In this document: in pieces, positions 11,329-60,512 of the stretch
Layout of the letters: every line of letters starts with the position of its first letter
Numbering within the stretch: the first letter of the stretch is position 1
Assembly: GCA_027493955.1 (NCBI GenBank)
Contig: JAOSJT010000001.1
Span: forward strand, 4,138,552-4,202,551
Reading direction: 5' to 3'
DNA from: Bacteroidia bacterium
Lineage (GTDB): Bacteria; Bacteroidota; Ignavibacteria; SZUA-365
Length of the DNA stretch: 64,000 nucleotides
Made by a program: the position numbers and the translations under genes
The notes under the pieces: generated by a model
Databases searched by the model: none
What the model was told of the DNA's origin: nothing
Seen by the model: only the letters and a program-made list of their open reading frames with translations

Positions 11329-11503
11329 CGCAATCCGCAATCACGCAGGCGGCCAGACGTGTCTCAACCGTGTTTCCGGATTATCGAATCCCTCCGCCTC
11401 AGACGAGCCGATTCCCGATTCCCGATTTCCGATTATCGATTCCCGATTCCCGATTATCGATTCCCGATTCCCAATTCCCGATTCCCGATTATCGATTCCC
11501 GAT
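11329..11503. repeat. partial copy of the dispersed repeat element (CGCAATC motif plus a 13-unit CGATTCC/CGATTAT heptanucleotide array)
   Basis: ccgcaatccgcaatcacgcaggcgg is followed by a period-7 array gattccc/gatttcc/gattatc (11410-11503). The same motifs occur at 26145-26506 and 28564-28725. Sits between convergent genes. The supplied ORFs 11087..11642 are repeat artefacts (IPDSRFPIIDSRFP...). Confidence 0.8.
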
Positions 11504-25924: not shown

Positions 25925-26506
25925 TTCGCAAGGCGCTACGCCCTCTGCGCTACGTGAGCCTTTCACATCTCATTATTCACATCTCGACGGGAAGTTGCGC
26001 CCTCCGGGCTATTCTTCAAAAAGGGGGCGCATATCCCCTACACTGAAGTGTAGGTCGAAGACTCGCCGCGGCGGGGTTAGAGGAGGTTGCGTCAGCCTCA
26101 GGCTGAGCTTGGGACGCAATCAATTCTCTTCAATACGCAGCAACGCGGGCACGGCCCGCCGTAGGCCTACCGAGATTTCCGATTATCGATCCACAATCCG
26201 CAATTCGCAATCCGCAATCACGCAGGCGGCCCGCTGTGCCCCTACAGGCCCGGATGTAATGATCCGAAATCCGCAATCCCCAATCCGCAATCCACAATCC
26301 GAAATCCGCAATCACGCCGGCGACTCGCCGTGCCCCTACCACGATTTCCGATTATCGAGCCGCAATCCGCAATCCGCAATCCGAAATCCGCAATCACGCA
26401 GGCGCCTCGCCGTGCCCCTACCGGGATTTCATGATTCCGCGATTCCCGATTCCCGATTCCCGATTCCCGATTCCCGATTCCAGATTCCAGATTCCAGATT
26501 CCAGAA
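25925..26506. repeat. dispersed non-coding repeat element, copy A (unique ~250-bp head, GGGCACGG-CCCG-CCGTGCCC hairpin motifs, CGCAATC and CGATTCC/AGATTCC heptamer arrays)
   Basis: The head (gcgctacgccct.tgcgctacg.gagcc ... ttcacatctca ... gcgccct.cgggct ... cttgggacgc ... gcgggcacggcccgcc) aligns with 28366-28590. Three ~75-bp sub-repeats each carry (CGCAATC)n, then (CGATTCC)5(AGATTCC)4. All six reading frames are open, so the supplied ORFs here are artefacts. Confidence 0.8.
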
Positions 26507-28365: not shown

Positions 28366-28725
28366 AAGCGCTACGCCCTTTTGCGCTACGCGAGCCGTTT
28401 ACTCAACCGAAGGCTGACACTTTTCACATCTCACCTGGAGTGGCGCCCTTCGGGCTTGGGAGCTCTTTGCTGGCTGCGTGCCCCCCACACTCACGTGTAG
28501 GGTTTTGGGAAGTGTCGCCCTTCGGGCTTGGGACGCGTATGATTTTCATTTGGATGTGACGACGCGGGCACGGCCCGCCGTGCCCCTACCGCGATTTCCG
28601 AGTATCGATCCGCAATCCTCAATCCGCAATCATGCAGGCGGCTCGCCGTGCCCCTACCGCGTTTCCGTGATTCCTGTTTCTCGATTCCCGATTCCCGATC
28701 CGAAATCGTCAATCGTCAATCGTAA
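28366..28725. repeat. dispersed non-coding repeat element, copy B (same orientation as copy A)
   Basis: Collinear with 25925-26240 (gcgctacgcccttttgcgctacgcgagcc, ttcacatctca, gcgcccttcgggcttggg, gcgggcacggcccgccgtgcccctacc). Ends in CGCAATC / CGATTCC / CGTCAAT heptamer runs abutting the stop of the next gene. Confidence 0.8.
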
Positions 28726-34326: not shown

Positions 34327-36123
34327 ATGACACGTCTCATTTTTTCCACTGCGATCGTACTCCCCCTGCTGCTCACAACGTGCACTACAGACCATCGTAG
34401 TGCCGCCGACCGTCACTTCGAGGAGGTTGCCGCGCACTTCATCGAAGCCTGGCTCGTTTCCCATCCCGAACAGGCGACAGCGCTGGGGGACCGCCGTTTC
34501 GACGACCGACTGAATGATTACTCCCACAATGGGATACAGAACGACATCGCGCTGTATCGTGCATATCTCGACACTTTGCGGGAAATACGCGTCGAGGATC
34601 TTTCGGCAGCACACATGATTGATTACGACATTATGCTGCAAAGTGTCACAGGAAGTCTTTTTACACTCGAAGAATTGCGCGAGTGGGAATGGAACCCCTT
34701 GTCATACAATCCCGGGGAGGCTATCTACGGCCTGATCGCGCGCAATGGAACGACGTTCAGCGCAAGAATGAAGGCCTTGGCCGCGAGACTGCGCGGTGTA
34801 CACGCTCTGCTCGACGCGGCCCGCGCGAATTTGACGAATCCTCCTGCAATTCACACCGAGACCGCGATCATTCAAAACGAAGGCGTCCTTGCACTGCTGA
34901 CCGGCATCGTGCAGGCTTGTATCGACAGCGTGGACAGTCCGCTGCGCGCCGAGCTCTCCACAGCTCGCGATTCCGCATTATTGGCACTCAGGGACTATGG
35001 TGCCTGGTTGTCGGAGGACTTGCTCCCGCGCTCACGACGTGACTTCCGACTTGGCGCGGCGCTGTACGCCAGGAAGTTTCAGTATAAACTCGATACGGAC
35101 ATGAAACCGGAAGATCTGTTGCAGGAGGCCTGGCTCGATCTCGCCCGTACCACAGAGGACATGTATCAGGTCGCACTTCCATTGTATGCGGAGCTGTTCG
35201 ACAGTCGTGACGCCGCGAAACTCGAGCGCGACGCACTCATACGCGCGGTACTCGCCAAGCTCAGCGATCAGCATTCCAACGACGATCGCATCGTTGAGCA
35301 GGCGCGGCGTGACCTCGTGGCGGCCACGGATTTCGTAAAGGCACAGGGCTTGGTGACCGTGCCCGCCGAGCCATTGGAGATCATCGTGATGCCGGAATTT
35401 CAGCGTGGTGTCGCGGTGGCTTACTGCGACAGTCCCGGAGCACTGGAGAAAAACGGAAAAACGTTTTTCGCCATCGCTCCCACTCCGGCATATTGGACCG
35501 ATGCACGCAAGGAGTCGTTCTACCGCGAATATAATGACCACATGCTGCGGAATCTTGTTGTGCACGAAGCGATGCCGGGGCACTATTTGCAGATAGCCGC
35601 ATCGCATAAGGCAGAGGCCCCGACACTCCTGCGTGCGATCACACCCAGCGGTGTGTTTGCCGAAGGGTGGGCGACCTACAGCGAGCAGCTCATGGCTGAC
35701 GCCGGTTTCGGCGGAGCGGCGATGAAGATGCAGCAACTCAAGATGCGTCTCCGTCTGTTGATCAACACCATTCTCGACCAGAGTGTCCACACGATGGGCA
35801 TGAGCGAACGCGATGGCATGGCGCTGATGATGGAGCAGGGATTTCAGGAGGAGAGCGAGGCGGCGGGTAAATGGCGCAGGGCCTGTCTCACCTCGGTGCA
35901 GCTCAGTTCCTACTATTACGGCAACCGGAGAATCAACGACATACGCGCACGCTATCAACAGCAGGCGGGTGAGCGCTTCGACCTGCGGGCGTTTCACGAT
36001 ACCCTGCTTTCCTTCGGCACCATTTCGCCCAAATATCTGCCCGTGTTGCTCAAGCTGCCCTCCGATGCCGCATCGGCACCGTCGGCAGCGGAACGGGAAA
36101 ATTTGGAACGCCGACCAGGTTGA
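34327..36123 (+). CDS. DUF885-family lipoprotein (zinc-metallopeptidase-like HEAMPGH motif)
   Basis: Signal/lipobox MTRLIFSTAIVLPLLLTTC; length ~600 aa; conserved HEAMPGHYLQ block typical of DUF885. Confidence 0.7.
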   Translation: MTRLIFSTAIVLPLLLTTCTTDHRSAADRHFEEVAAHFIEAWLVSHPEQATALGDRRFDDRLNDYSHNGIQNDIALYRAYLDTLREIRVEDLSAAHMIDYDIMLQSVTGSLFTLEELREWEWNPLSYNPGEAIYGLIARNGTTFSARMKALAARLRGVHALLDAARANLTNPPAIHTETAIIQNEGVLALLTGIVQACIDSVDSPLRAELSTARDSALLALRDYGAWLSEDLLPRSRRDFRLGAALYARKFQYKLDTDMKPEDLLQEAWLDLARTTEDMYQVALPLYAELFDSRDAAKLERDALIRAVLAKLSDQHSNDDRIVEQARRDLVAATDFVKAQGLVTVPAEPLEIIVMPEFQRGVAVAYCDSPGALEKNGKTFFAIAPTPAYWTDARKESFYREYNDHMLRNLVVHEAMPGHYLQIAASHKAEAPTLLRAITPSGVFAEGWATYSEQLMADAGFGGAAMKMQQLKMRLRLLINTILDQSVHTMGMSERDGMALMMEQGFQEESEAAGKWRRACLTSVQLSSYYYGNRRINDIRARYQQQAGERFDLRAFHDTLLSFGTISPKYLPVLLKLPSDAASAPSAAERENLERRPG

Positions 36124-37148
36124 TGGAACCTTCGCACGATACCGACGCGCTAGCAGCCCTCGGAACGGAGTTCACCGGCACCGCTCCGAACGCGGTGATC
36201 GCGCTCAAGGGTGACGCTTCCGACCGCAGGATTTACCGGCTTGTGTATTCTTCGCAAAGTCTGATCGGCGTCGTCGGACCCAATGTGGCGGAGAACCGCG
36301 CCTTCATCGGCTTCGCGCGCTCCTTCCGCGCCGCAGGATTGCATGTGCCGGAAGTGTATCGCGTATCGGAACACGAGCAGGCGTATCTGCAGGAGGATCT
36401 CGGAGACGCGCTTTTCAGCGACTGGCAACGGACACATACGACAGCCGAGGGTGTGGATGGCGAGGCCATGGCCCTGTACGGCATCGTATTGCAAGAGCTG
36501 CTGCGTTTTCAGCACGACGCCGCCTCCGCAGTGGATTATTCACTGTGTTATCAGACCCGCGAGTTCTCGACCGAAGCGATGCTTTTCGACATCCGTTATT
36601 TCCGCGACAACTTCCTTGCACGTCTCGCAGAAGTTCCGTGGGACGAGCGGCGTTTCATGGCCGATTGCAACCTGCTGGTCGAAATGCTGTGCCGGGAGCC
36701 GCGCAACGGTTTCCTCTACCGAGATTTTCAATCCCGCAATGTCATGCTGCGCGATGGCACACCCTGGTTCATAGATTTCCAATCCGGCCGAAAGGGCGCT
36801 CCGCAGTATGACCTCGCGTCCATGCTGTACGACTCAAAGGGCGGGCTTACAACCGCGCAGCGCGAGACGCTCATCGATCAGTACATTGCCGGCCTGAGGT
36901 CGCGGTATGATGTCGATGAAGTCGTTTTCCGGCGCCGTTTCGCCGGTTTCGCCGTGTTGCGGCTCATGCAGGCACTCGGCGCTTTCGCCAACCTCGGTCT
37001 GAACAAAGGCAAACCAACGTACCTCGAGTTCATTCCGTCACGTTTGAGCACAATGCGCGAGGTCGTTTCCTCAGCGGTAATTCTCGACGAAGTCCCGTAT
37101 CTGAGGGGTTTGTTGCTGCGGTGCGGTGATGGTGGTGATTCAGAGTGA
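36123..37148 (+). CDS. aminoglycoside-phosphotransferase-fold sugar kinase, AmgK-like (anomeric MurNAc/GlcNAc kinase); LicA-type alternative not excluded
   Basis: APH/ChoK-family catalytic loop YRDFQSRNVML (Brenner motif HxDxxxxN with Y) and IDFQSG metal-binding loop; 341 aa; a nucleotidyltransferase gene follows in the same direction. Starts TGATG-overlapped with the DUF885 stop. Confidence 0.6.
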   Translation: MEPSHDTDALAALGTEFTGTAPNAVIALKGDASDRRIYRLVYSSQSLIGVVGPNVAENRAFIGFARSFRAAGLHVPEVYRVSEHEQAYLQEDLGDALFSDWQRTHTTAEGVDGEAMALYGIVLQELLRFQHDAASAVDYSLCYQTREFSTEAMLFDIRYFRDNFLARLAEVPWDERRFMADCNLLVEMLCREPRNGFLYRDFQSRNVMLRDGTPWFIDFQSGRKGAPQYDLASMLYDSKGGLTTAQRETLIDQYIAGLRSRYDVDEVVFRRRFAGFAVLRLMQALGAFANLGLNKGKPTYLEFIPSRLSTMREVVSSAVILDEVPYLRGLLLRCGDGGDSE

Positions 37149-37149
37149 T

Positions 37150-37705
37150 AAGCGAAGTAAAGAGTGAAGAGTAAAGAGTAAAGAGTGAAGAGCGTCAACC
37201 AAGGAGCTAGCGCTGTAACTGCAGAATATACGAAAACGAACCCCTTTACTCTTTACTCTTTACCCTTCACGAATCCTATGAGTTTATAGATTCACATCCC
37301 ATCATGAGCAGACGTTCTGAAGTTACAGAAATATATGCGTAACAGAACCCCTTTACCCTTTACTCTTTACCCTTCACGAATCCAAGGAGTTTATCGATTC
37401 GCATTCCATCCTGAGCAGACGTTTTGAAGTTACAGAAATATATGCGTAACAGAACCCCTTTACCCTTTACTCTTTACCCTTCACGAATCCTATGAGTTTA
37501 TAGATTCACATCCCATCATGGGCAGACGTTCTGAAGTTACAGAAATATATGCGTAACAGAACCCCTTTACCCTTTACTCTTTACCCTTCACGAATCCTAT
37601 GAGTTTATAGATTCACATCCCATCATGAGCAGACGTTCTGAAGTTACAGAAATATATGCGTAACAGAACCCCTCTACCCTTTACTCTTTACCCTTTACGA
37701 ATTCC
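37150..37705 (+). repeat. 107-bp tandem repeat array (~4.5 copies) preceded by an inverted GTAAAGA/GTGAAGA heptamer block; lower GC than surroundings
   Basis: cagacgttctgaagttacag recurs at 37309, 37416, 37523 and 37630 (period 107). Each unit contains ..cctttaccctttactctttacccttcac.. and atgagcagacgttctgaagttacagaaatatatgcgtaa. The final copy merges into the start of ORF 37706. Confidence 0.85.
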
Positions 37706-38104
37706 ATGAGTCTGTTGATTCACATCGCATCATTCGGATACAGAAAATCCGGTATCCCCGCAGACGAGTCCGGCCATGGCGGCGGGTATGTGTTCGACTG
37801 CCGCGGTTTGCCGAATCCCGGACGCGAAGAGCGCTTTCAGGCGCTGACGGGATTGGACGCGGAGGTGGAACTGTTTCTTGCGGCTGAGGAGGCGGTAGAG
37901 GATTTTCTTGCGCACTGCCTTGCGCTCTGTCTGAGTACGGCGGAGGCGCATCGGCGCAGGGATTTTACGCAGCTGTCCGTAAGCTTCGGCTGCACGGGAG
38001 GTCAGCATCGCTCGGTGTACTGCGCCGAACGGACGGCACAGGCCCTGCGCGATGCGGGGTATGATGTCGTCGTGACGCATAACGAACGGGAGCATTGGCC
38101 ATGA
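37706..38104 (+). CDS. RapZ (YhbJ/YvcJ) C-terminal-domain-like protein lacking the P-loop NTPase half
   Basis: 132 aa; ...VSFGCTGGQHRSVYCAERTAQALRDAGYDV matches, as recalled, the GCTGG(Q/K)HRSV block of the RapZ family C-terminal domain; no Walker A. Stop overlaps the start of the next gene (ATGA). Confidence 0.45.
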   Translation: MSLLIHIASFGYRKSGIPADESGHGGGYVFDCRGLPNPGREERFQALTGLDAEVELFLAAEEAVEDFLAHCLALCLSTAEAHRRRDFTQLSVSFGCTGGQHRSVYCAERTAQALRDAGYDVVVTHNEREHWP

Positions 38105-38808
38105 AGGGCATGATACTTGCCGCGGGGTTCGGGACGCGACTCGGTGCGCTGACGAGCGATATTCCCAAGCCGCTGCTCCCGGTCGCCGGGAAACCCATGA
38201 TAGCGTCAGCGGTCGAAGCGCTCAAACGAGCCGGTTGTACCGATATCATCGTCAACGCGCATCATCATGCCGGTATGATCGTCGCGCACTTCAGGGAAAC
38301 GGATTACGGAGTCCGGATACGCGTGAGCGTCGAGAGCGATATTCTCGGTACCGGAGGAGGGATTGTGCATGCGCGTCCGTTGCTCGGAGATGCTCCCTTT
38401 TTTCTTTTACATAACGCCGACATCGTCACCGGCGCGATTCTTTCCGCGCTGGTGGAGGAGCACCGTCGGCACGCGCCGCTTGCGACGCTGCTTGTGCACC
38501 GCAGGGAAACGAAGCGTGCCGTGCTGTTCGATGAAAGTATGCGCTTTCTCGGCAAGGAAGTGTGGCGCGAAGAAGGCATGGAGTTTCCGGACGATGCACA
38601 GCGCTTCAATTACTGCGGTGTGCAGGTGATATCGCGGGAGTTTTTCGATCTCGCTTTTCCGGATGGTTTTTCAGATCTGTTCGATTGCCACCGCATCGCA
38701 CTCTCGTCCGGGCGGATGATACGGGGGATGGAACATAACGCGTATTGGACGGATCTTGGAACAGAGGAACGGATTCGCGAACATGAGCAACATGAGCATA
38801 TCCGATAG
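38101..38808 (+). CDS. sugar-1-phosphate nucleotidyltransferase, MurU-like (MurNAc-alpha-1-P uridylyltransferase)
   Basis: [34 protein letters not shown] N-terminal NTP-transferase motif, ~235 aa, downstream of the AmgK-like kinase. ATG at 38101 (the track start at 38095 is TTG). Confidence 0.6.
   Translation: [235 protein letters not shown]

Positions 38809-43390: not shown

Positions 43391-43392
<2 letters not shown>
42301..43392 (+). CDS. rsgA: ribosome small-subunit-dependent GTPase A
   Basis: Circularly permuted GTPase motifs (VVNKIDL ... GHSGVGKTSILN ... DTPGIREFGL) and C-terminal zinc finger CRFPHCTHTHEPGCAV. Carries a ~40-aa Lys/Arg-rich N-terminal extension. Confidence 0.85.
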
Positions 43393-43893
<501 letters not shown>

Positions 43894-44265: not shown

Positions 44266-44356
44266 GTCATACTCCCAAAGTGAGTGGAATGAAAAAAAAC
44301 ATCAATACCTGTGCGGTATTAACGAAATGCGTAAATCTTTCCTGGATACAAATAGA

Positions 44357-45120
44357 AGAGAGCAGAGAGCAGAGAGCAGAGAGCAGAGAGCAGAGAGCAG
44401 AGAGCACGTCCATAGAAGACCAGGAAATCCGCACAAGATCCTGACTCCGCTTCCTGCACGACCGTCCGACCTGCACGACCATGCTCCCCGCTCTCTGCTC
44501 TCCGCTCCTGCACAAGCGTTCGACTCGCATGGCCGTGCTCTCTGCTCTCCGCTCCTGCACAAGCGTTCGACTCGCATGGCCGTGCTCTCTGCTCTCCGCT
44601 CCTGCACAAGCGTTCGACTCGCATGGCCGTGCTCTCTGCTCTCCGCTCCTGCACAAGCGTTCGACTCGCATGGCCGTGCTCTCTGCTTTCCGCTCCTGCA
44701 CAAGCGTTCGACTCGCATGGCCGTGCTCTCCGCTCTCCGCTCCTGCACAAGCGTTCGACTCGTATGGCCGTGCTCTCTGCTCTCCGCTCCTGCACAAGCG
44801 TTCGACTCGCATGGCCGTGCTCTCTGCTCTCCGCTCCTGCACAAGCGTTCGACTCGCATGGCCGTGCTCTCTGCTCTCCGCTCCTGCACAAGCGTTCGAC
44901 TCGCATGGCCGTGCTCTCTGCTCTCCGCTCCTGCACAAGCGTTCGACTCGCATGGCCGTGCTCTCTGCTCTCCGCTCTCCGCTCCTGCACAAGCGTTCGA
45001 CTCGCATGGCCGTGCTCTCTGCTCTCCGCTCCTGCACCAGCATCCGACTCGCATGGTCGTGCTCTCCGCTCTCTGCTCTCCGCTCCTGCACGACCGGCCG
45101 ACCTGCACGACCGTGCTCCC
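44357..45120. repeat. composite minisatellite, right copy: (GCAGAGA)x7-8, identical 85-bp linker, 47-bp unit x ~12
   Basis: Same orientation and linker (agcacgtccatagaagac.aggaaatccgcacaagatcctgactccgcttcctgcacgaccgtccgacctgcacgaccatgctcc) as the left copy. The heptamer differs by one base (GCAGAGA vs GCGGAGA). Ends at the stop of the next minus-strand gene. Confidence 0.9.
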
Positions 45121-51947: not shown

Positions 51948-52160
51948 AATCGTGTAAAGGAAAAAGGGTAAAAAGCTTGGGATCGAAAGAAATCAGTCCC
52001 TCTTACCTTTTTTCCTTTTCACCCTTTTCCCTTTTCACGATCCACCCCTTTTCACCTTTTCACGATCCCCACCCCTCACACAAGTGCACCGCGCCACAGA
52101 TTTTCGTACCTTACGGCTGATGATGGTCAACGCACGCATCACGTACCGGTCGAGAGCAGC

Positions 52161-57399: not shown

Positions 57400-58371
57400 A
57401 TGCGATTTCTTGCTGCTCTTTTCCTCGCCTGCTGTGCGGTGACGACCGTACACGCGCAGGTGGACACGCTGCAATACGACGGCATCACCAACATCTATGA
57501 CGGGAAGCTTCTGGCCGTCACGCGCTTCCCCGGCGAACTGGACGTGTTCTTCAATACACGTTTCTCCCCCGCTGAAAAATGTACCCTCACCACGGTACTC
57601 GTCGGTTTCAGCGTCGTGAAGTTTCAGGCGCTCACGGGCGAAGATACGCTGGTGGTCAAGGTATTCGAGAACAGCGCGGTTCCGCCGAACCTGGTCAACG
57701 TGGTGAAAACGTACAAGGTCAATCTCGGCGATGCCGGCTTCCCGAGCCCGAACATCCGCTTCAACAATCCGCTCGAAGCGGGAGCGAGGGATGTTCTCGC
57801 CGTCAACCTCAATCCACCCGTCATTTTCTCTCCCCGGCGCGATTTCATCGTTGGGGTGAAGTTGGAGGCGAAACAGAAACTTGCGGTGGGCGACGGTCTG
57901 TGGAATGGCCTCACGATGCTGTTCAATCCCGGCGTCACGGAATTTGATCGCTACCGTCGGTATTTCATCGCACCAAACCCCGCTGCGTCACGGAATACTC
58001 TCGCCACCGAAGCAGCCAATATCGGGCTGTTCATGCGCGCCGTCGTGTCGTACAATCCCAATCTCCCCAACGTCGATCTGACGGACGCCACCGGGGCACC
58101 GCAGCCCGCCGCGTTCGCGCTGCGGCAGAATTATCCGAATCCCTTCAATCCATCCACCGTGCTGGAGTACACACTCTCCTCGCGGCAACACGCGACACTG
58201 ACGGTACATGACGCGCTGGGACGCACGGTGTCCGTGCTCGCAGACGGCATGATGGATGCGGGGACGCACAGCACGCGCTTCGACGCCGACGGTTTGCCTG
58301 CCGGCGTCTATGTGGCGCGTCTCACAGTGAACGGTCAAATGCTCACGAGGTCCATGCTGCTCCTGAAATGA
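57400..58371 (+). CDS. secreted protein with T9SS C-terminal sorting domain (hypothetical)
   Basis: Signal peptide MRFLAALFLACCAVTTVHAQ. C-terminus ..LRQNYPNPFNPSTVLEYTLSSRQHATLTVHDALGRTVSVLADGMMDAGTHSTRFDADGLPAGVYVARLTVNGQ is a textbook T9SS CTD. GGAGGA SD upstream. Confidence 0.75.
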   Translation: MRFLAALFLACCAVTTVHAQVDTLQYDGITNIYDGKLLAVTRFPGELDVFFNTRFSPAEKCTLTTVLVGFSVVKFQALTGEDTLVVKVFENSAVPPNLVNVVKTYKVNLGDAGFPSPNIRFNNPLEAGARDVLAVNLNPPVIFSPRRDFIVGVKLEAKQKLAVGDGLWNGLTMLFNPGVTEFDRYRRYFIAPNPAASRNTLATEAANIGLFMRAVVSYNPNLPNVDLTDATGAPQPAAFALRQNYPNPFNPSTVLEYTLSSRQHATLTVHDALGRTVSVLADGMMDAGTHSTRFDADGLPAGVYVARLTVNGQMLTRSMLLLK

Positions 58372-60269
58372 GACTTTCGGAATCGCAGATCCAGCAGGTT
58401 CGCACAGCCGCCGACATCGTGGACGTTGTCGGCGGCTTCGTGCGTTTACGCAAAACAGGCCGCAATTTCACAGGGCTGTGTCCGTTTCACAAGGAGAAGA
58501 CGCCGTCCTTCAACGTCAATCCCGAGCGACAGATCTACAAATGCTTCGGTTGCGGCAAGGGGGGAGACGTGATCAGCTTCATCATGGATATGGAGCATGT
58601 GTCCTTCATGGACGCGGTGGAAGAACTGGCCGAGCGGTACGGAATAGCGCTGCAACACGATGATGGCATCCGTCCCGAGCGCAAGGAAGATATGGAGGCG
58701 CTGTACGCCGCCACGAGGCTCGCCGCGCGCTTTTTCTTCGACAGTCTCAGAGGGGCCTCCGGCGAGGCGGGACGGGAGTACTTCCGGCGTCGCGGATGGT
58801 CGGAAGAAACCATGAAAACCTTCGGCCTCGGTTACGCGCCGGCGGGCTGGAGCAATTTTCTCGACCACGCCCGCGCCGAAGGAATCGACGAGCACATTCT
58901 CGACCTCGCGGGCCTGATCAAGCTGCGCGAGGGCGGCGGGGCCTATGATCGTTTCAGGAATCGCGTCATTTTTCCCATCATTCACGTCACGCGCAAGGTG
59001 CTGGGTTTCGGCGCCAGGGCGCTGTCGCCCGAAGACGAGCCGAAATATCTGAACTCGCCCGAGTCCGCGATTTACAACAAGAGCAAGGTTCTGTACGGAC
59101 TTGCGCAGGCCTCCAACGCCATACGCGAGGCCGAGTCCATTATTGTGGTCGAGGGGTATGCCGACGTGCTGTCGCTGCATCAGGCCGGGATACGCAACGT
59201 GGTATCCACCAGCGGCACGGCCATGACGCCTGATCAGGTGCACGCCATCAGCCGCTACACGCGCAATATTTTCTTTCTCTACGACGCCGACTCCGCCGGG
59301 CTCCGCGCCATGCTGCGCGGCATAGACGTGATACTCGCCGAGGATTGCGACGCGCGCATCGTACAGCTTGCCGCGGGCGAGGATCCGGATTCCTTTGTCA
59401 TGAAATACGGCGTCGAAGCCGTGCGCGAACGCATGGAGCAGGCGGTGTCCTTCGTGGACTTCGTTACCGCGCAACTGCGGGCCGACGGCAAGCTCGACTC
59501 GCCCGAGGGACGCGCACAGGCCGTGCATCAAATCGTGGGCATGCTTTCGAAAATGGACGACGCGCTGCGCAGAGAGTTCTACATTCACCACATCGCGCAG
59601 ACCTACGGCATTTACGAGAATCTGCTGTACCAGGAACTGGCGAAGGTGATGAAGGGGGCGAAGCGCCGCGAGCGCGCCGCCGTCATCGAAGAACACGCAC
59701 CCCCTCCCGCCGACGCTGCCTCCGAAAGCGTGCCGAAGGAGGAGTTCGCGTTCTGCTCGCATCTCTTGCAGGCGCCGCCGGAAATTCAGGCCGAGGCCCT
59801 GCACTCTGTGCGTATCGGGCATTTTCGCAGCGCGCGCATCCGCGACCTGCTGCACATTCTGTTCGAGCAGGAAGAGCACGACGGCGCGGTGGACAGCAAC
59901 GCGCTGTGGAATTACGTGCAGGACGATGCCGGTATGCACACCCTGCTCGCCGACCTGCTGATGCCGAGGGATGAAGTCAGTAGCGGCTGGAGCAGAAGGC
60001 AGAATGTCAATCCCAAGGACCATCGCCGGGTATTGCGCGATTACTACAAAGAGGTGCTGGAGGCGCGCGTCGGGGAACAACTCTCGCGCCTGCAGGAGAG
60101 GCAAAAACAGGCATCGGGTCCAGACGAGGAGAACGAGCTTGCGCGACGTATCATCGCGTTGCAGAAGGCCGTATCGAGCCTGAACGGAGTCTCGCTGATA
60201 GCGAATTTTCCCGATATCGAAGGGGAGGATGAAATGAGCGATGGTACGGAGACGAGTTTCGGGTTTTGA
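58368..60269 (+). CDS. dnaG: DNA primase
   Basis: Zinc-binding CPFHKEKTPSF...CFGCGKGGDV and TOPRIM block IIVVEGYADVLSL. ATGA overlap with the upstream stop. Confidence 0.9.
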   Translation: MRLSESQIQQVRTAADIVDVVGGFVRLRKTGRNFTGLCPFHKEKTPSFNVNPERQIYKCFGCGKGGDVISFIMDMEHVSFMDAVEELAERYGIALQHDDGIRPERKEDMEALYAATRLAARFFFDSLRGASGEAGREYFRRRGWSEETMKTFGLGYAPAGWSNFLDHARAEGIDEHILDLAGLIKLREGGGAYDRFRNRVIFPIIHVTRKVLGFGARALSPEDEPKYLNSPESAIYNKSKVLYGLAQASNAIREAESIIVVEGYADVLSLHQAGIRNVVSTSGTAMTPDQVHAISRYTRNIFFLYDADSAGLRAMLRGIDVILAEDCDARIVQLAAGEDPDSFVMKYGVEAVRERMEQAVSFVDFVTAQLRADGKLDSPEGRAQAVHQIVGMLSKMDDALRREFYIHHIAQTYGIYENLLYQELAKVMKGAKRRERAAVIEEHAPPPADAASESVPKEEFAFCSHLLQAPPEIQAEALHSVRIGHFRSARIRDLLHILFEQEEHDGAVDSNALWNYVQDDAGMHTLLADLLMPRDEVSSGWSRRQNVNPKDHRRVLRDYYKEVLEARVGEQLSRLQERQKQASGPDEENELARRIIALQKAVSSLNGVSLIANFPDIEGEDEMSDGTETSFGF

Positions 60270-60271
60270 TA

Positions 60272-60512
60272 AGACGCAGGGGAGATTTTAACGCAGCCCT
60301 TCGACTTCGCTCAGGGGCCGGCGCAGGGACGCAGAGGAGGGGAATGTAACGCAGCCCTTCGACTTCGCTCAAGGGCCGGCACAGGGACGCAGAGGAGGGG
60401 AATGTAACGCAGCCCTTCGACTTCGCTCAGGGGCCGGCGAAGGGACGCAGAGGAGGGGAATGTAACGCAGCCCTTCGACTTCGCTAAGGGGCCGGCGAAG
60501 AGACGCAGAGGA
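60272..60512. repeat. 58-bp tandem repeat x4 immediately 3' of dnaG
   Basis: Unit taacgcagcccttcgacttcgctcaggggccggcgcagggacgcagaggaggggaatg starts at 60289, 60347, 60405 and 60463 with a few substitutions per copy. No spacers. Confidence 0.85.

Follow-up and report, generated by a model that had tools for sequence, protein, structure and literature searches.

A 107-bp minisatellite at a heptamer-repeat hairpin between an AmgK-like kinase gene and a stand-alone RapZ_C gene in an uncultured member of the Bacteroidota

What kind of element is the tandem array of 107-bp units that stands between an AmgK-like kinase gene and the gene of a stand-alone RapZ C-terminal domain (RapZ_C) in an uncultured member of the Bacteroidota, and does it serve a purpose there? 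The array lies in a stretch of 64,000 nucleotides (here called the window) of contig JAOSJT010000001.1, positions 4,138,552 to 4,202,551 of the forward strand, from the metagenome-assembled genome (MAG) of a Bacteroidia bacterium (Ignavibacteria, SZUA-365; assembly GCA_027493955.1). A first-pass annotation had described it as a duplication of the 5' end and upstream region of the RapZ_C/MurU operon, with a micro-open reading frame (micro-ORF) in each copy, and had offered amplified promoters or leaders, a copy-number-variable regulatory region or a satellite as possible roles. Here, we argue, with a probability of about 0.7, that the array is a species-specific minisatellite that owes its origin to tandem duplication at a hairpin spacer of heptamer repeats, of the same kind as the short tandemly repeated repetitive (STRR) elements of cyanobacteria. 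Judged from its DNA, it is probably neutral and no dedicated regulatory device. It is one of several repeat expansions in a genome that is generally rich in heptamer repeats.

Tandem Repeats Finder places the array at 37238-37733 (+), with a period of 107, 4.6 copies, 93% matches, 0% indels and a score of 873. As in minisatellites, units of at least 10 bp follow each other head to tail with high identity and at a constant period. The period and the four marker positions of the first-pass annotation were reproduced: a 37-nt core of the unit recurs at 37309, 37416, 37523 and 37630, exactly at three of them and with one mismatch at 37416, and none of 100 shuffles gave any match to it. The four full units occupy 37238-37344, 37345-37451, 37452-37558 and 37559-37665 (all +), the fourth being identical to the array consensus, and a partial fifth unit of 68 nt follows at 37666-37733 (+). 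Pairs of units differ at 1-8 of 107 positions overall. Units 1, 3 and 4 differ from one another at only 1-2 of 107, and unit 2 is the most diverged, with 7-8 differences from the other three. Homology of the fifth copy extends over exactly 68 nt with 8-9 differences, and past position 68 it matches at chance (5/39). GC content is 40% across the array and 58-62% in the flanking sequence, and a long open reading frame (ORF) is absent from all frames of both strands.

Each unit consists of two segments. Segment A (68 nt) comprises GAAC, the four pyrimidine-rich heptamers CCCTTTA CCCTTTA CTCTTTA CCCTTCA, a 7-nt leader and 28 nt of homology to the 5' end of the RapZ_C gene, 26 nt of which is coding sequence; segment B (39 nt) is GAGCAGACGTTCTGAAGTTACAGAAATATATGCGTAACA. 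The heptamers form what we call the right arm, with 3.4-4.1 heptamer copies in each unit, at 37242-37270 in unit 1 and at 37670-37698 in the partial unit. In the latter the 7-nt leader comes next, then the genuine ATG (37706) with the first 28 nt of RapZ_C, 26 of which the repeat units share; the earlier statement that the last copy runs into the ORF at 37706 holds. Comparison of the units likewise confirmed that the array duplicates the upstream region and the first 26 nt of the RapZ_C/MurU operon. The copied gene starts inside the array are dead: units 1, 3 and 4 read ATG AGT TTA TAG, with a stop at codon 4 (37278-37289 in unit 1, from 37492 in unit 3 and from 37599 in unit 4), and unit 2 has AGG at this place. 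Iterons or a replication origin were considered and set aside, since a rep gene is missing and iterons are far shorter than the unit, and so was a CRISPR-like array, for want of spacers.

Repeats assemble in an error-prone way, and this region is covered by a single full-length assembly, which would be the grounds for taking the array as an artefact. That it should leave its trace in independent assemblies if real, as the first-pass annotation reasoned, could be checked on short-read contigs of the Logan collection. Seven independent contigs (L001-L007) all start at 37644, which is 62 nt upstream of the RapZ_C ATG and precedes by exactly 30 nt the first base that only the last copy has. Such a common start resembles the branch point that a repeat makes in the graph of a short-read assembly, on the assumption of a k-mer size of 31. 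On the other side, four contigs (L094-L097) that carry the exact 341-aa kinase product, matched with an ATG start one codon downstream of the TTG, all end 37 nt past the kinase stop, inside the upstream heptamer block. Since private substitutions distinguish the units, and since contigs from at least seven independent runs break at the predicted repeat boundaries on both sides, we rule out an assembly artefact as extremely improbable.

The position of the array became clearer when the flanking genes were compared with their homologues. The kinase gene (APH family, 341 aa; Pfam APH, E = 2e-14) occupies 36123-37148 (+) and ends with TGA at 37146-37148. After a spacer of 557 nt follows the RapZ_C gene (MCZ7557885.1, 132 aa; Pfam PapZ_C, E = 1.5e-32) at 37706-38104 (+), whose start is backed by the Pfam match over residues 4-127 and by an N-terminus that coincides with those of 21 aligned homologues. 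Its stop is overlapped by a gene for a MurU-like nucleotidyltransferase at 38095-38808 (+), identified by Pfam NTP_transferase (E = 3.8e-24) and by conserved gene order. We scanned GTDB genomes with the RapZ_C alignment; the loci listed lie at 57% identity or below, and the window's own species and genus are not among them. Both domains are present in the expected order at 77 of the 80 loci listed, and in 75 of these 77 kinase and RapZ_C form a single fused ORF. With three close relatives and a further locus (L100) added, a fused ORF is found in 76 of 81 loci listed, and the fused loci span Acidobacteriota, Bacteroidota, Elusimicrobia, Calditrichia and others. One of them (L019, 8972-10399) was checked by eye and is a 475-aa fused ORF. 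The MurU-like gene is usually the next gene after the fusion (L013-L092). The array therefore sits at a gene-fission junction. It had been suggested before that it separates the AmgK-like kinase from its partners, and this was borne out more strongly than claimed, as most related loci have a fused ORF, and closer ones a stop/start overlap, at this place. The sugar-phosphate-binding RapZ_C module may be a hitherto unrecognised part of the N-acetylmuramic acid (MurNAc) salvage pathway; no paper naming RapZ together with AmgK and MurU was found in the literature searched.

The array is only one part of a larger element. A left arm of purine-rich heptamers (GAGTAAA/GAGTGAA, x5.3; 37156-37192, +) begins 8 nt past the kinase stop codon and was detected by Tandem Repeats Finder, by a lag-7 scan and as an inverted repeat. 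It is followed by a loop segment, B0 (37193-37237, +), which by alignment is orthologous to the hairpin loop of two related contigs, L008 and L011. The left arm is complementary to the pyrimidine-rich block of every unit; 27-nt arms are 93% complementary with unit 1 and 85% with the others, in agreement with the inverted block of GTAAAGA/GTGAAGA type that the first-pass annotation had described as able to pair with each unit. The hairpin with unit 1 is predicted at -43.6 kcal/mol (z = -6.0) for the plus-strand RNA and at -47.5 kcal/mol (z = -6.7) for the minus strand, so that both arm complementarity and folding energy indicate inverted heptamer blocks forming a hairpin between the genes. In a duplex with the left arm, right arm 1 has an energy of -39.5 kcal/mol, each of arms 2 to 4 one of -34.7 kcal/mol and arm 5 one of -29.5 kcal/mol. 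Unit 1 is the best partner because of its sole private substitution, a C to T change at position 13, which improves the pairing, and in the minimum-energy fold of the full-length region the inner (3') left arm pairs with unit 1. The same predicted fold pairs the kinase stop region at 37143-37155 (GAGUGAUAAGCGA) with RapZ_C codons 7-10 at 37724-37735 (AUCGCAUCAUUC), which closes the whole array into one large loop.

The hairpin does not resemble an intrinsic terminator. Its stem is AT-rich, the loop measures 53 nt, the arm is followed by CGAATCC, and a scan of 36900-37900 found no terminator-like site with a GC-rich stem and a T-run. No Rfam family reached its gathering score; the only matches were sub-threshold ones to plant miRNA precursors (26 bits against 75-100), which we attribute to the length of the hairpin. 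An invertible promoter between the arms was also rejected: the loop is only about 53 nt, there is no recombinase gene nearby, and the loop has one orientation in all independent assemblies that cover it (the window and L008-L011). A G-quadruplex in the right arm was discarded, as each unit has just three G3 tracts, on the minus strand. B0 and segment B also share a 13-nt match in reverse complement; as it lies in a near-palindromic CTGCAG context and its flanks mismatch, it was not taken for an extended palindrome.

How old are the hairpin and the array? Contigs of relatives were found by exact-protein look-up of the closest homologues. Three related species (77-78% amino-acid identity) keep the order of genes for a SpoIIE phosphatase, DUF885, APH, RapZ_C, MurU, a further gene, a DUF3887 hydrolase and RsgA; the gene after MurU is a VWA gene in L011 and another gene in L008. 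The 107-bp array is absent from all three (L008, L011 and L093), and their spacers hold heptamer blocks. The L008 spacer (219 nt) has about 17 left-arm heptamers, a 55-nt loop and four right-arm heptamers, 16 nt from the ATG, and its hairpin has z = -3.4. In L011 (117 nt) about two left heptamers are present and the hairpin is not significant (z = 0.04). L093 (177 nt) has the same right arm at 7 nt from the ATG and lacks the GAGTRAA-type left block; in its place a (GTGAAAG)n block, which invades the 3' end of the kinase ORF, pairs imperfectly (z = -1.2). The alignment shows the right arm conserved 7-16 nt upstream of the ATG in four species. The GAGTRAA-type block is present in L008, L009, L010 and L011 with differing copy numbers. 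One and the same RapZ_C protein is encoded in L008, L009 and L010, but their left-arm heptamers are unlike in number and order, and the heptamer blocks therefore mutate fast. In L009 (1-62) and L010 (1-17), both of the L008 species, (GAGTAAA)n is joined to non-kinase sequence (...ttcgcgctact[t/c]accagagt...); this junction could reflect a strain with a rearrangement, or else short reads were mis-joined through a heptamer block that occurs in identical form at another place in the genome.

More distant relatives with the same gene order (58-66% identity) have no spacer at all: stop and start codons overlap, as TGATG in L098 and L099, TAATG in L100 and ATGA in L101 and L102. Read as a series, these sequences suggest that a fused ORF gave rise to split genes with an overlap, then to a heptamer-hairpin spacer, and lastly, in this species alone of those sampled, to a spacer with a minisatellite. 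Of the two parts, the hairpin of heptamers is the more ancient and common to related species, and the 107-bp array is confined to this one within our sample.

The spacer also looks like a mosaic. Segment B is 35/41 identical to the L093 sequence just upstream of the right arm; B0 is 41/47 identical to the L008 loop and 30/37 to the unit's own segment B. In the same way, the kinase gene is closest to L008 at the DNA level (85%, against 79% for L093), and the first 150 nt of RapZ_C are closest to L093 (83%, against 79% for L008). As segment B and the RapZ_C start are nearest to L093, and B0 and the kinase gene to L008, we infer recombination between diverged alleles in or beside the heptamer blocks; the pattern is as expected of a recombinant mosaic.

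That heptamers are a general habit of this genome is supported by the window as a whole, which holds 38 period-7 runs (1133 nt), all of them intergenic, at many loci. Their density is 5.9 per 10 kb, compared with 0.4 per 10 kb in 1.28 Mb of distant relatives. At lags 5 and 6 the lag scan found 3-5 runs each, the number varying with the filter used, and lags 8-11 had none. Eight intergenic regions bear heptamers, four convergent and four co-directional; none were seen in about seven divergent intergenic regions, by reading of a crude gene map. The design of a purine-rich arm, a loop and a pyrimidine-rich arm recurs at 43394/43560, 44360/44482 and 51949/52015. In the first two of these the right arm and 28 nt of adjacent loop have been amplified, as happened in the 107-bp array, to 47-bp arrays (x6.5 and x12.4), which contain no gene start and precede no start codon. 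The simplest explanation of why the RapZ_C 5' end lies inside the 107-bp unit is that the right arm is only 7 nt from the ATG.

The two 47-bp loci (43392-43879 and 44350-45090) are near-identical composite repeats in direct orientation, made of (GAGCGGA)x13 or (AGAGAGC)x7, a 75-nt loop and the 47-bp array (x6.5, x12.4). They flank a minus-strand gene of 123 aa whose product falls in the 23S_rRNA_IVP four-helix-bundle family (PF05635, E = 3e-25). Members of this family occur in rRNA intervening sequences, and the Avd proteins of diversity-generating retroelements belong to it as well. At 51949-52068 an unamplified heptamer/octamer hairpin lies between convergent genes (arms within 51949-52041, GTAAAGGAAAAAGGGTAAAAAG versus CTTTTCACCCTTTTCCCTTTTCAC). 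Its 27-nt arms are 89% complementary, and its right arm has a 25-bp duplication (x1.9), which may be a first step towards an array.

We suggest the following origin for the 107-bp array. The AmgK-like kinase and the RapZ_C domain would first have been one ORF, which later split into two genes whose stop and start codons overlapped. A spacer of inverted 7-bp blocks around a loop of about 50 nt would then have grown between stop and start in the genus of the MAG, and in this species a 107-bp segment would have been duplicated head to tail; the segment took in 39 nt of loop and the pyrimidine-rich right arm as well as the leader and the gene's first 26 nt. Amplification and homogenisation would have produced four full units besides the original. 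The heptamer blocks and the hairpin are likely to have promoted slipped-strand mispairing or unequal recombination, which acted together with recombination between diverged alleles. The interior copies would be non-coding relics with dead starts and an accidental 12-codon ORF, and only the last copy would drive RapZ_C/MurU. At the RNA level the single left arm could form a stem of about 27 bp with any of the five right arms, the first being the most stable. It is conceivable that translational coupling is lost, that the kinase message carries a hairpin at its 3' end or that an RNase III site is formed; any such regulatory effect would be incidental to the repeat and not what it is there for.

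Several observations weigh against this account. Across four species, the right-arm heptamers and a large part of the loop are roughly as conserved as the coding sequence, and the only private substitution of unit 1 strengthens pairing with the left arm. Because of these two observations there is a hint that the hairpin, not necessarily the array, is under selection. Moreover, it is the right-hand pyrimidine-rich arm that has been amplified in 3/3 arrays, which suggests a directional process, and the order of duplication and allele replacement is one that we infer.

According to a model that we consider unlikely, the right arm beside the AUG would be a translational enhancer, possibly an S1-type binding site, and the left arm would sequester it; extra right arms upstream would capture the left arm and free the genuine leader, so that copy number would tune the coupling of RapZ_C/MurU to the kinase. 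The model draws on the duplex energies given above, which favour arm 1, so that a first-transcribed decoy would be preferred because its energy is the lowest, and on the minimum-energy fold, in which the inner (3') left arm pairs with unit 1. Conservation of the right arm 7-16 nt upstream of the ATG in four species fits as well, as does the stop/start overlap of the ancestral state, i.e. translational coupling, and heptamers just upstream of start codons have been proposed as sites of translational regulators (PMC4679880). However, the pairings invoked are all thermodynamic predictions, the 47-bp arrays of the same design precede no start codon, and in the relatives the GTGAAAG block of L093 pairs imperfectly (z = -1.2) and the L011 hairpin is not significant (z = 0.04). 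An allied and similarly improbable model would have the hairpin functionally replace the stop/start overlap at the fission junction, either by joining the kinase stop to the RapZ_C start or by masking the leader, with the array providing a variable number of decoy arms and decoy starts that set the amount of RapZ_C/MurU per kinase message. Such a locus, if real, would use simple-sequence DNA as a contingency-type switch for the branch of peptidoglycan recycling that salvages MurNAc. The role of amplified promoters or leaders, in which unit number would set the transcription of RapZ_C/MurU in the style of a contingency locus, also has little probability. Each unit does hold the roughly 80 nt directly upstream of the gene, where a promoter of its own would lie, and the units are AT-rich (40% GC against 58-62%). 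Yet no sigma-70-like hexamer pair is found in the units, the sole match of the scan lies inside coding sequence at chance level, and the Bacteroidota TTTG/TAnnTTTG motif was not seen by eye. A consensus in every unit, as expected of a promoter array, was thus lacking in the sigma-70 scan, with Bacteroidota-type sites judged by eye only, and this suggestion of the first-pass annotation gained no positive support. Furthermore, in the closer relatives whose stop and start codons overlap RapZ_C is evidently co-transcribed with the kinase gene.

Less likely still is a mobile element, such as a miniature inverted-repeat transposable element or a repetitive extragenic palindrome (REP), that inserted between the genes and was then multiplied. 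The hairpin spacer fills a gap between codons that overlap in relatives, other dispersed palindromic repeats occur in the genome, and L009 and L010 join the same heptamer block to different upstream sequence, all of which would suit an insertion. On the other hand, part of the unit is the gene's own 5' end, the unit core occurs nowhere else in the 64-kb window with up to 3 mismatches allowed, and neither a target-site duplication nor a nearby transposase gene was seen. Neither the unit core nor the conserved loop/right-arm junction had an exact match in the metagenome contigs of the Joint Genome Institute (JGI), a collection evidently without these samples, as L008's own contig was also unmatched. 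We give almost no credence to the idea that the micro-ORF (MSRRSEVTEIYA) is translated, be it as a leader peptide or as a small protein. Its ATG and stop codon are present in units 1, 3 and 4 (37304-37342, 37518-37556, which opens with ATGGGC, and 37625-37663), so that the claim of a 12-codon micro-ORF in every copy holds for three of the four full units and fails for unit 2, which has CTG for ATG; unit 3 carries a Ser-to-Gly change. The ATG (unit positions 67-69) consists of the last two gene-homologous bases and the first loop-derived base and so straddles the boundary at which homology ends, the orthologous single-copy sequence in L093 has no such ORF, and there is no run of regulatory codons. 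With unit 2, L093 and the position of the ATG speaking against it, the micro-ORF is neither a conserved upstream ORF nor a leader-peptide attenuator, and as a feature it did not stand up.

The minisatellite at a heptamer hairpin, which we prefer, has parallels in known repeat families. In cyanobacteria, 7-bp STRR hairpins of unknown function lie between co-transcribed genes such as hupS and hupL; their copy number varies, and transcript stabilisation or translational coupling has been proposed (PMC2670836). Our locus shares with them the tandem 7-bp units, the inverted hairpin-forming blocks and the position in the spacer of co-oriented operon genes. It differs in that the host is an uncultured Bacteroidota MAG and not a heterocystous cyanobacterium, and in that one arm and its neighbouring sequence have been amplified to a higher-order 107-bp repeat. 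To our knowledge, the heptamers found here (GAGTRAA/YCCTTTA) are not classical STRR sequences. As host and heptamers differ, the array falls outside the cyanobacterial STRR families taken strictly.

Heptamers are the commonest class of long simple sequence repeats, are ascribed to polymerase slippage and occur in a few Bacteroidetes too (PMC4679880). TAACTGA and GGGNATC heptamers are among the long simple sequence repeats of 5-11 nt (Mrazek 2007, as cited in PMC4679880; PMC4692102). The window is similar to these repeats in its heptamer period, its strong intergenic bias and its positions near stop codons or upstream of starts, and to the GGGNATC repeats in having heptamer spacers that are convergent or co-directional (PMC4692102). 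The reported long simple sequence repeats are direct arrays; here, inverted pairs are found that seed 47- and 107-bp minisatellites. Bacterial minisatellites, or variable-number tandem repeat (VNTR) loci, are likewise intergenic head-to-tail arrays of 10-150-bp units with near-identical interior and diverged edge copies, and short-read assemblies break at them as they do here, where the copy number comes from one full-length assembly. Unlike in the usual minisatellites, the unit includes the 5' end of a gene and is nested in a hairpin element. Like REPs and bacterial interspersed mosaic elements (BIMEs), the locus has a stable stem-loop right after a stop codon between co-transcribed genes, where effects on mRNA 3'-end stability or partial termination are plausible. 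REPs, however, are dispersed copies of one conserved palindrome moved by REP-associated tyrosine transposases, whereas the arms here are locus-specific simple repeats, and no dispersed copies of the unit were found in the 64-kb window.

The locus shows how an intergenic region can be born, stepwise, inside a former single gene, and it extends STRR-like heptamer hairpins and their higher-order amplification to a Bacteroidota lineage. On the practical side, the array breaks short-read assemblies at this operon, and should its copy number vary, it would lend itself naturally to strain typing. Should the hairpin or the array influence how the kinase is coupled to RapZ_C/MurU, simple repeats would act here as a control point in the recycling of cell-wall sugars.

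Further repeats and minor features were noted. The relative L008 carries a gene with a weak Pfam match to the Por_Secre_tail (type IX secretion system sorting) domain, and in the window GC skew is too weak to assign the direction of replication. A GGGAATC heptamer repeat that forms G-quadruplexes is highly enriched in Xanthomonas (PMC4692102). Its reverse complement is present in the window as (GATTCCC)n/(CCGATTC)n arrays at 11408-11490, 26436-26505 and 28676-28699, and the same GATTCCC-type heptamer occurs within the 3' end of the kinase ORF in L093 (951-977). A conserved GC-rich hairpin motif (ACGCAGGCGGC..GCCGTGCCCCTAC) comes after every (ATCCGCA)n block at 26187-26400 and 28606-28631, and block and motif together form a composite REP-like module with at least 4 repeats in two intergenic regions. 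Lastly, a 58-bp tandem array (x3.9, 95% identity) lies at 60289-60512, directly after the stop of a 633-aa gene (58368-60269). Each of its units holds a CCCTTCG...CGAAGGG stem, and similar motifs (gcccttcgggcttggga) occur at 28440-28540.

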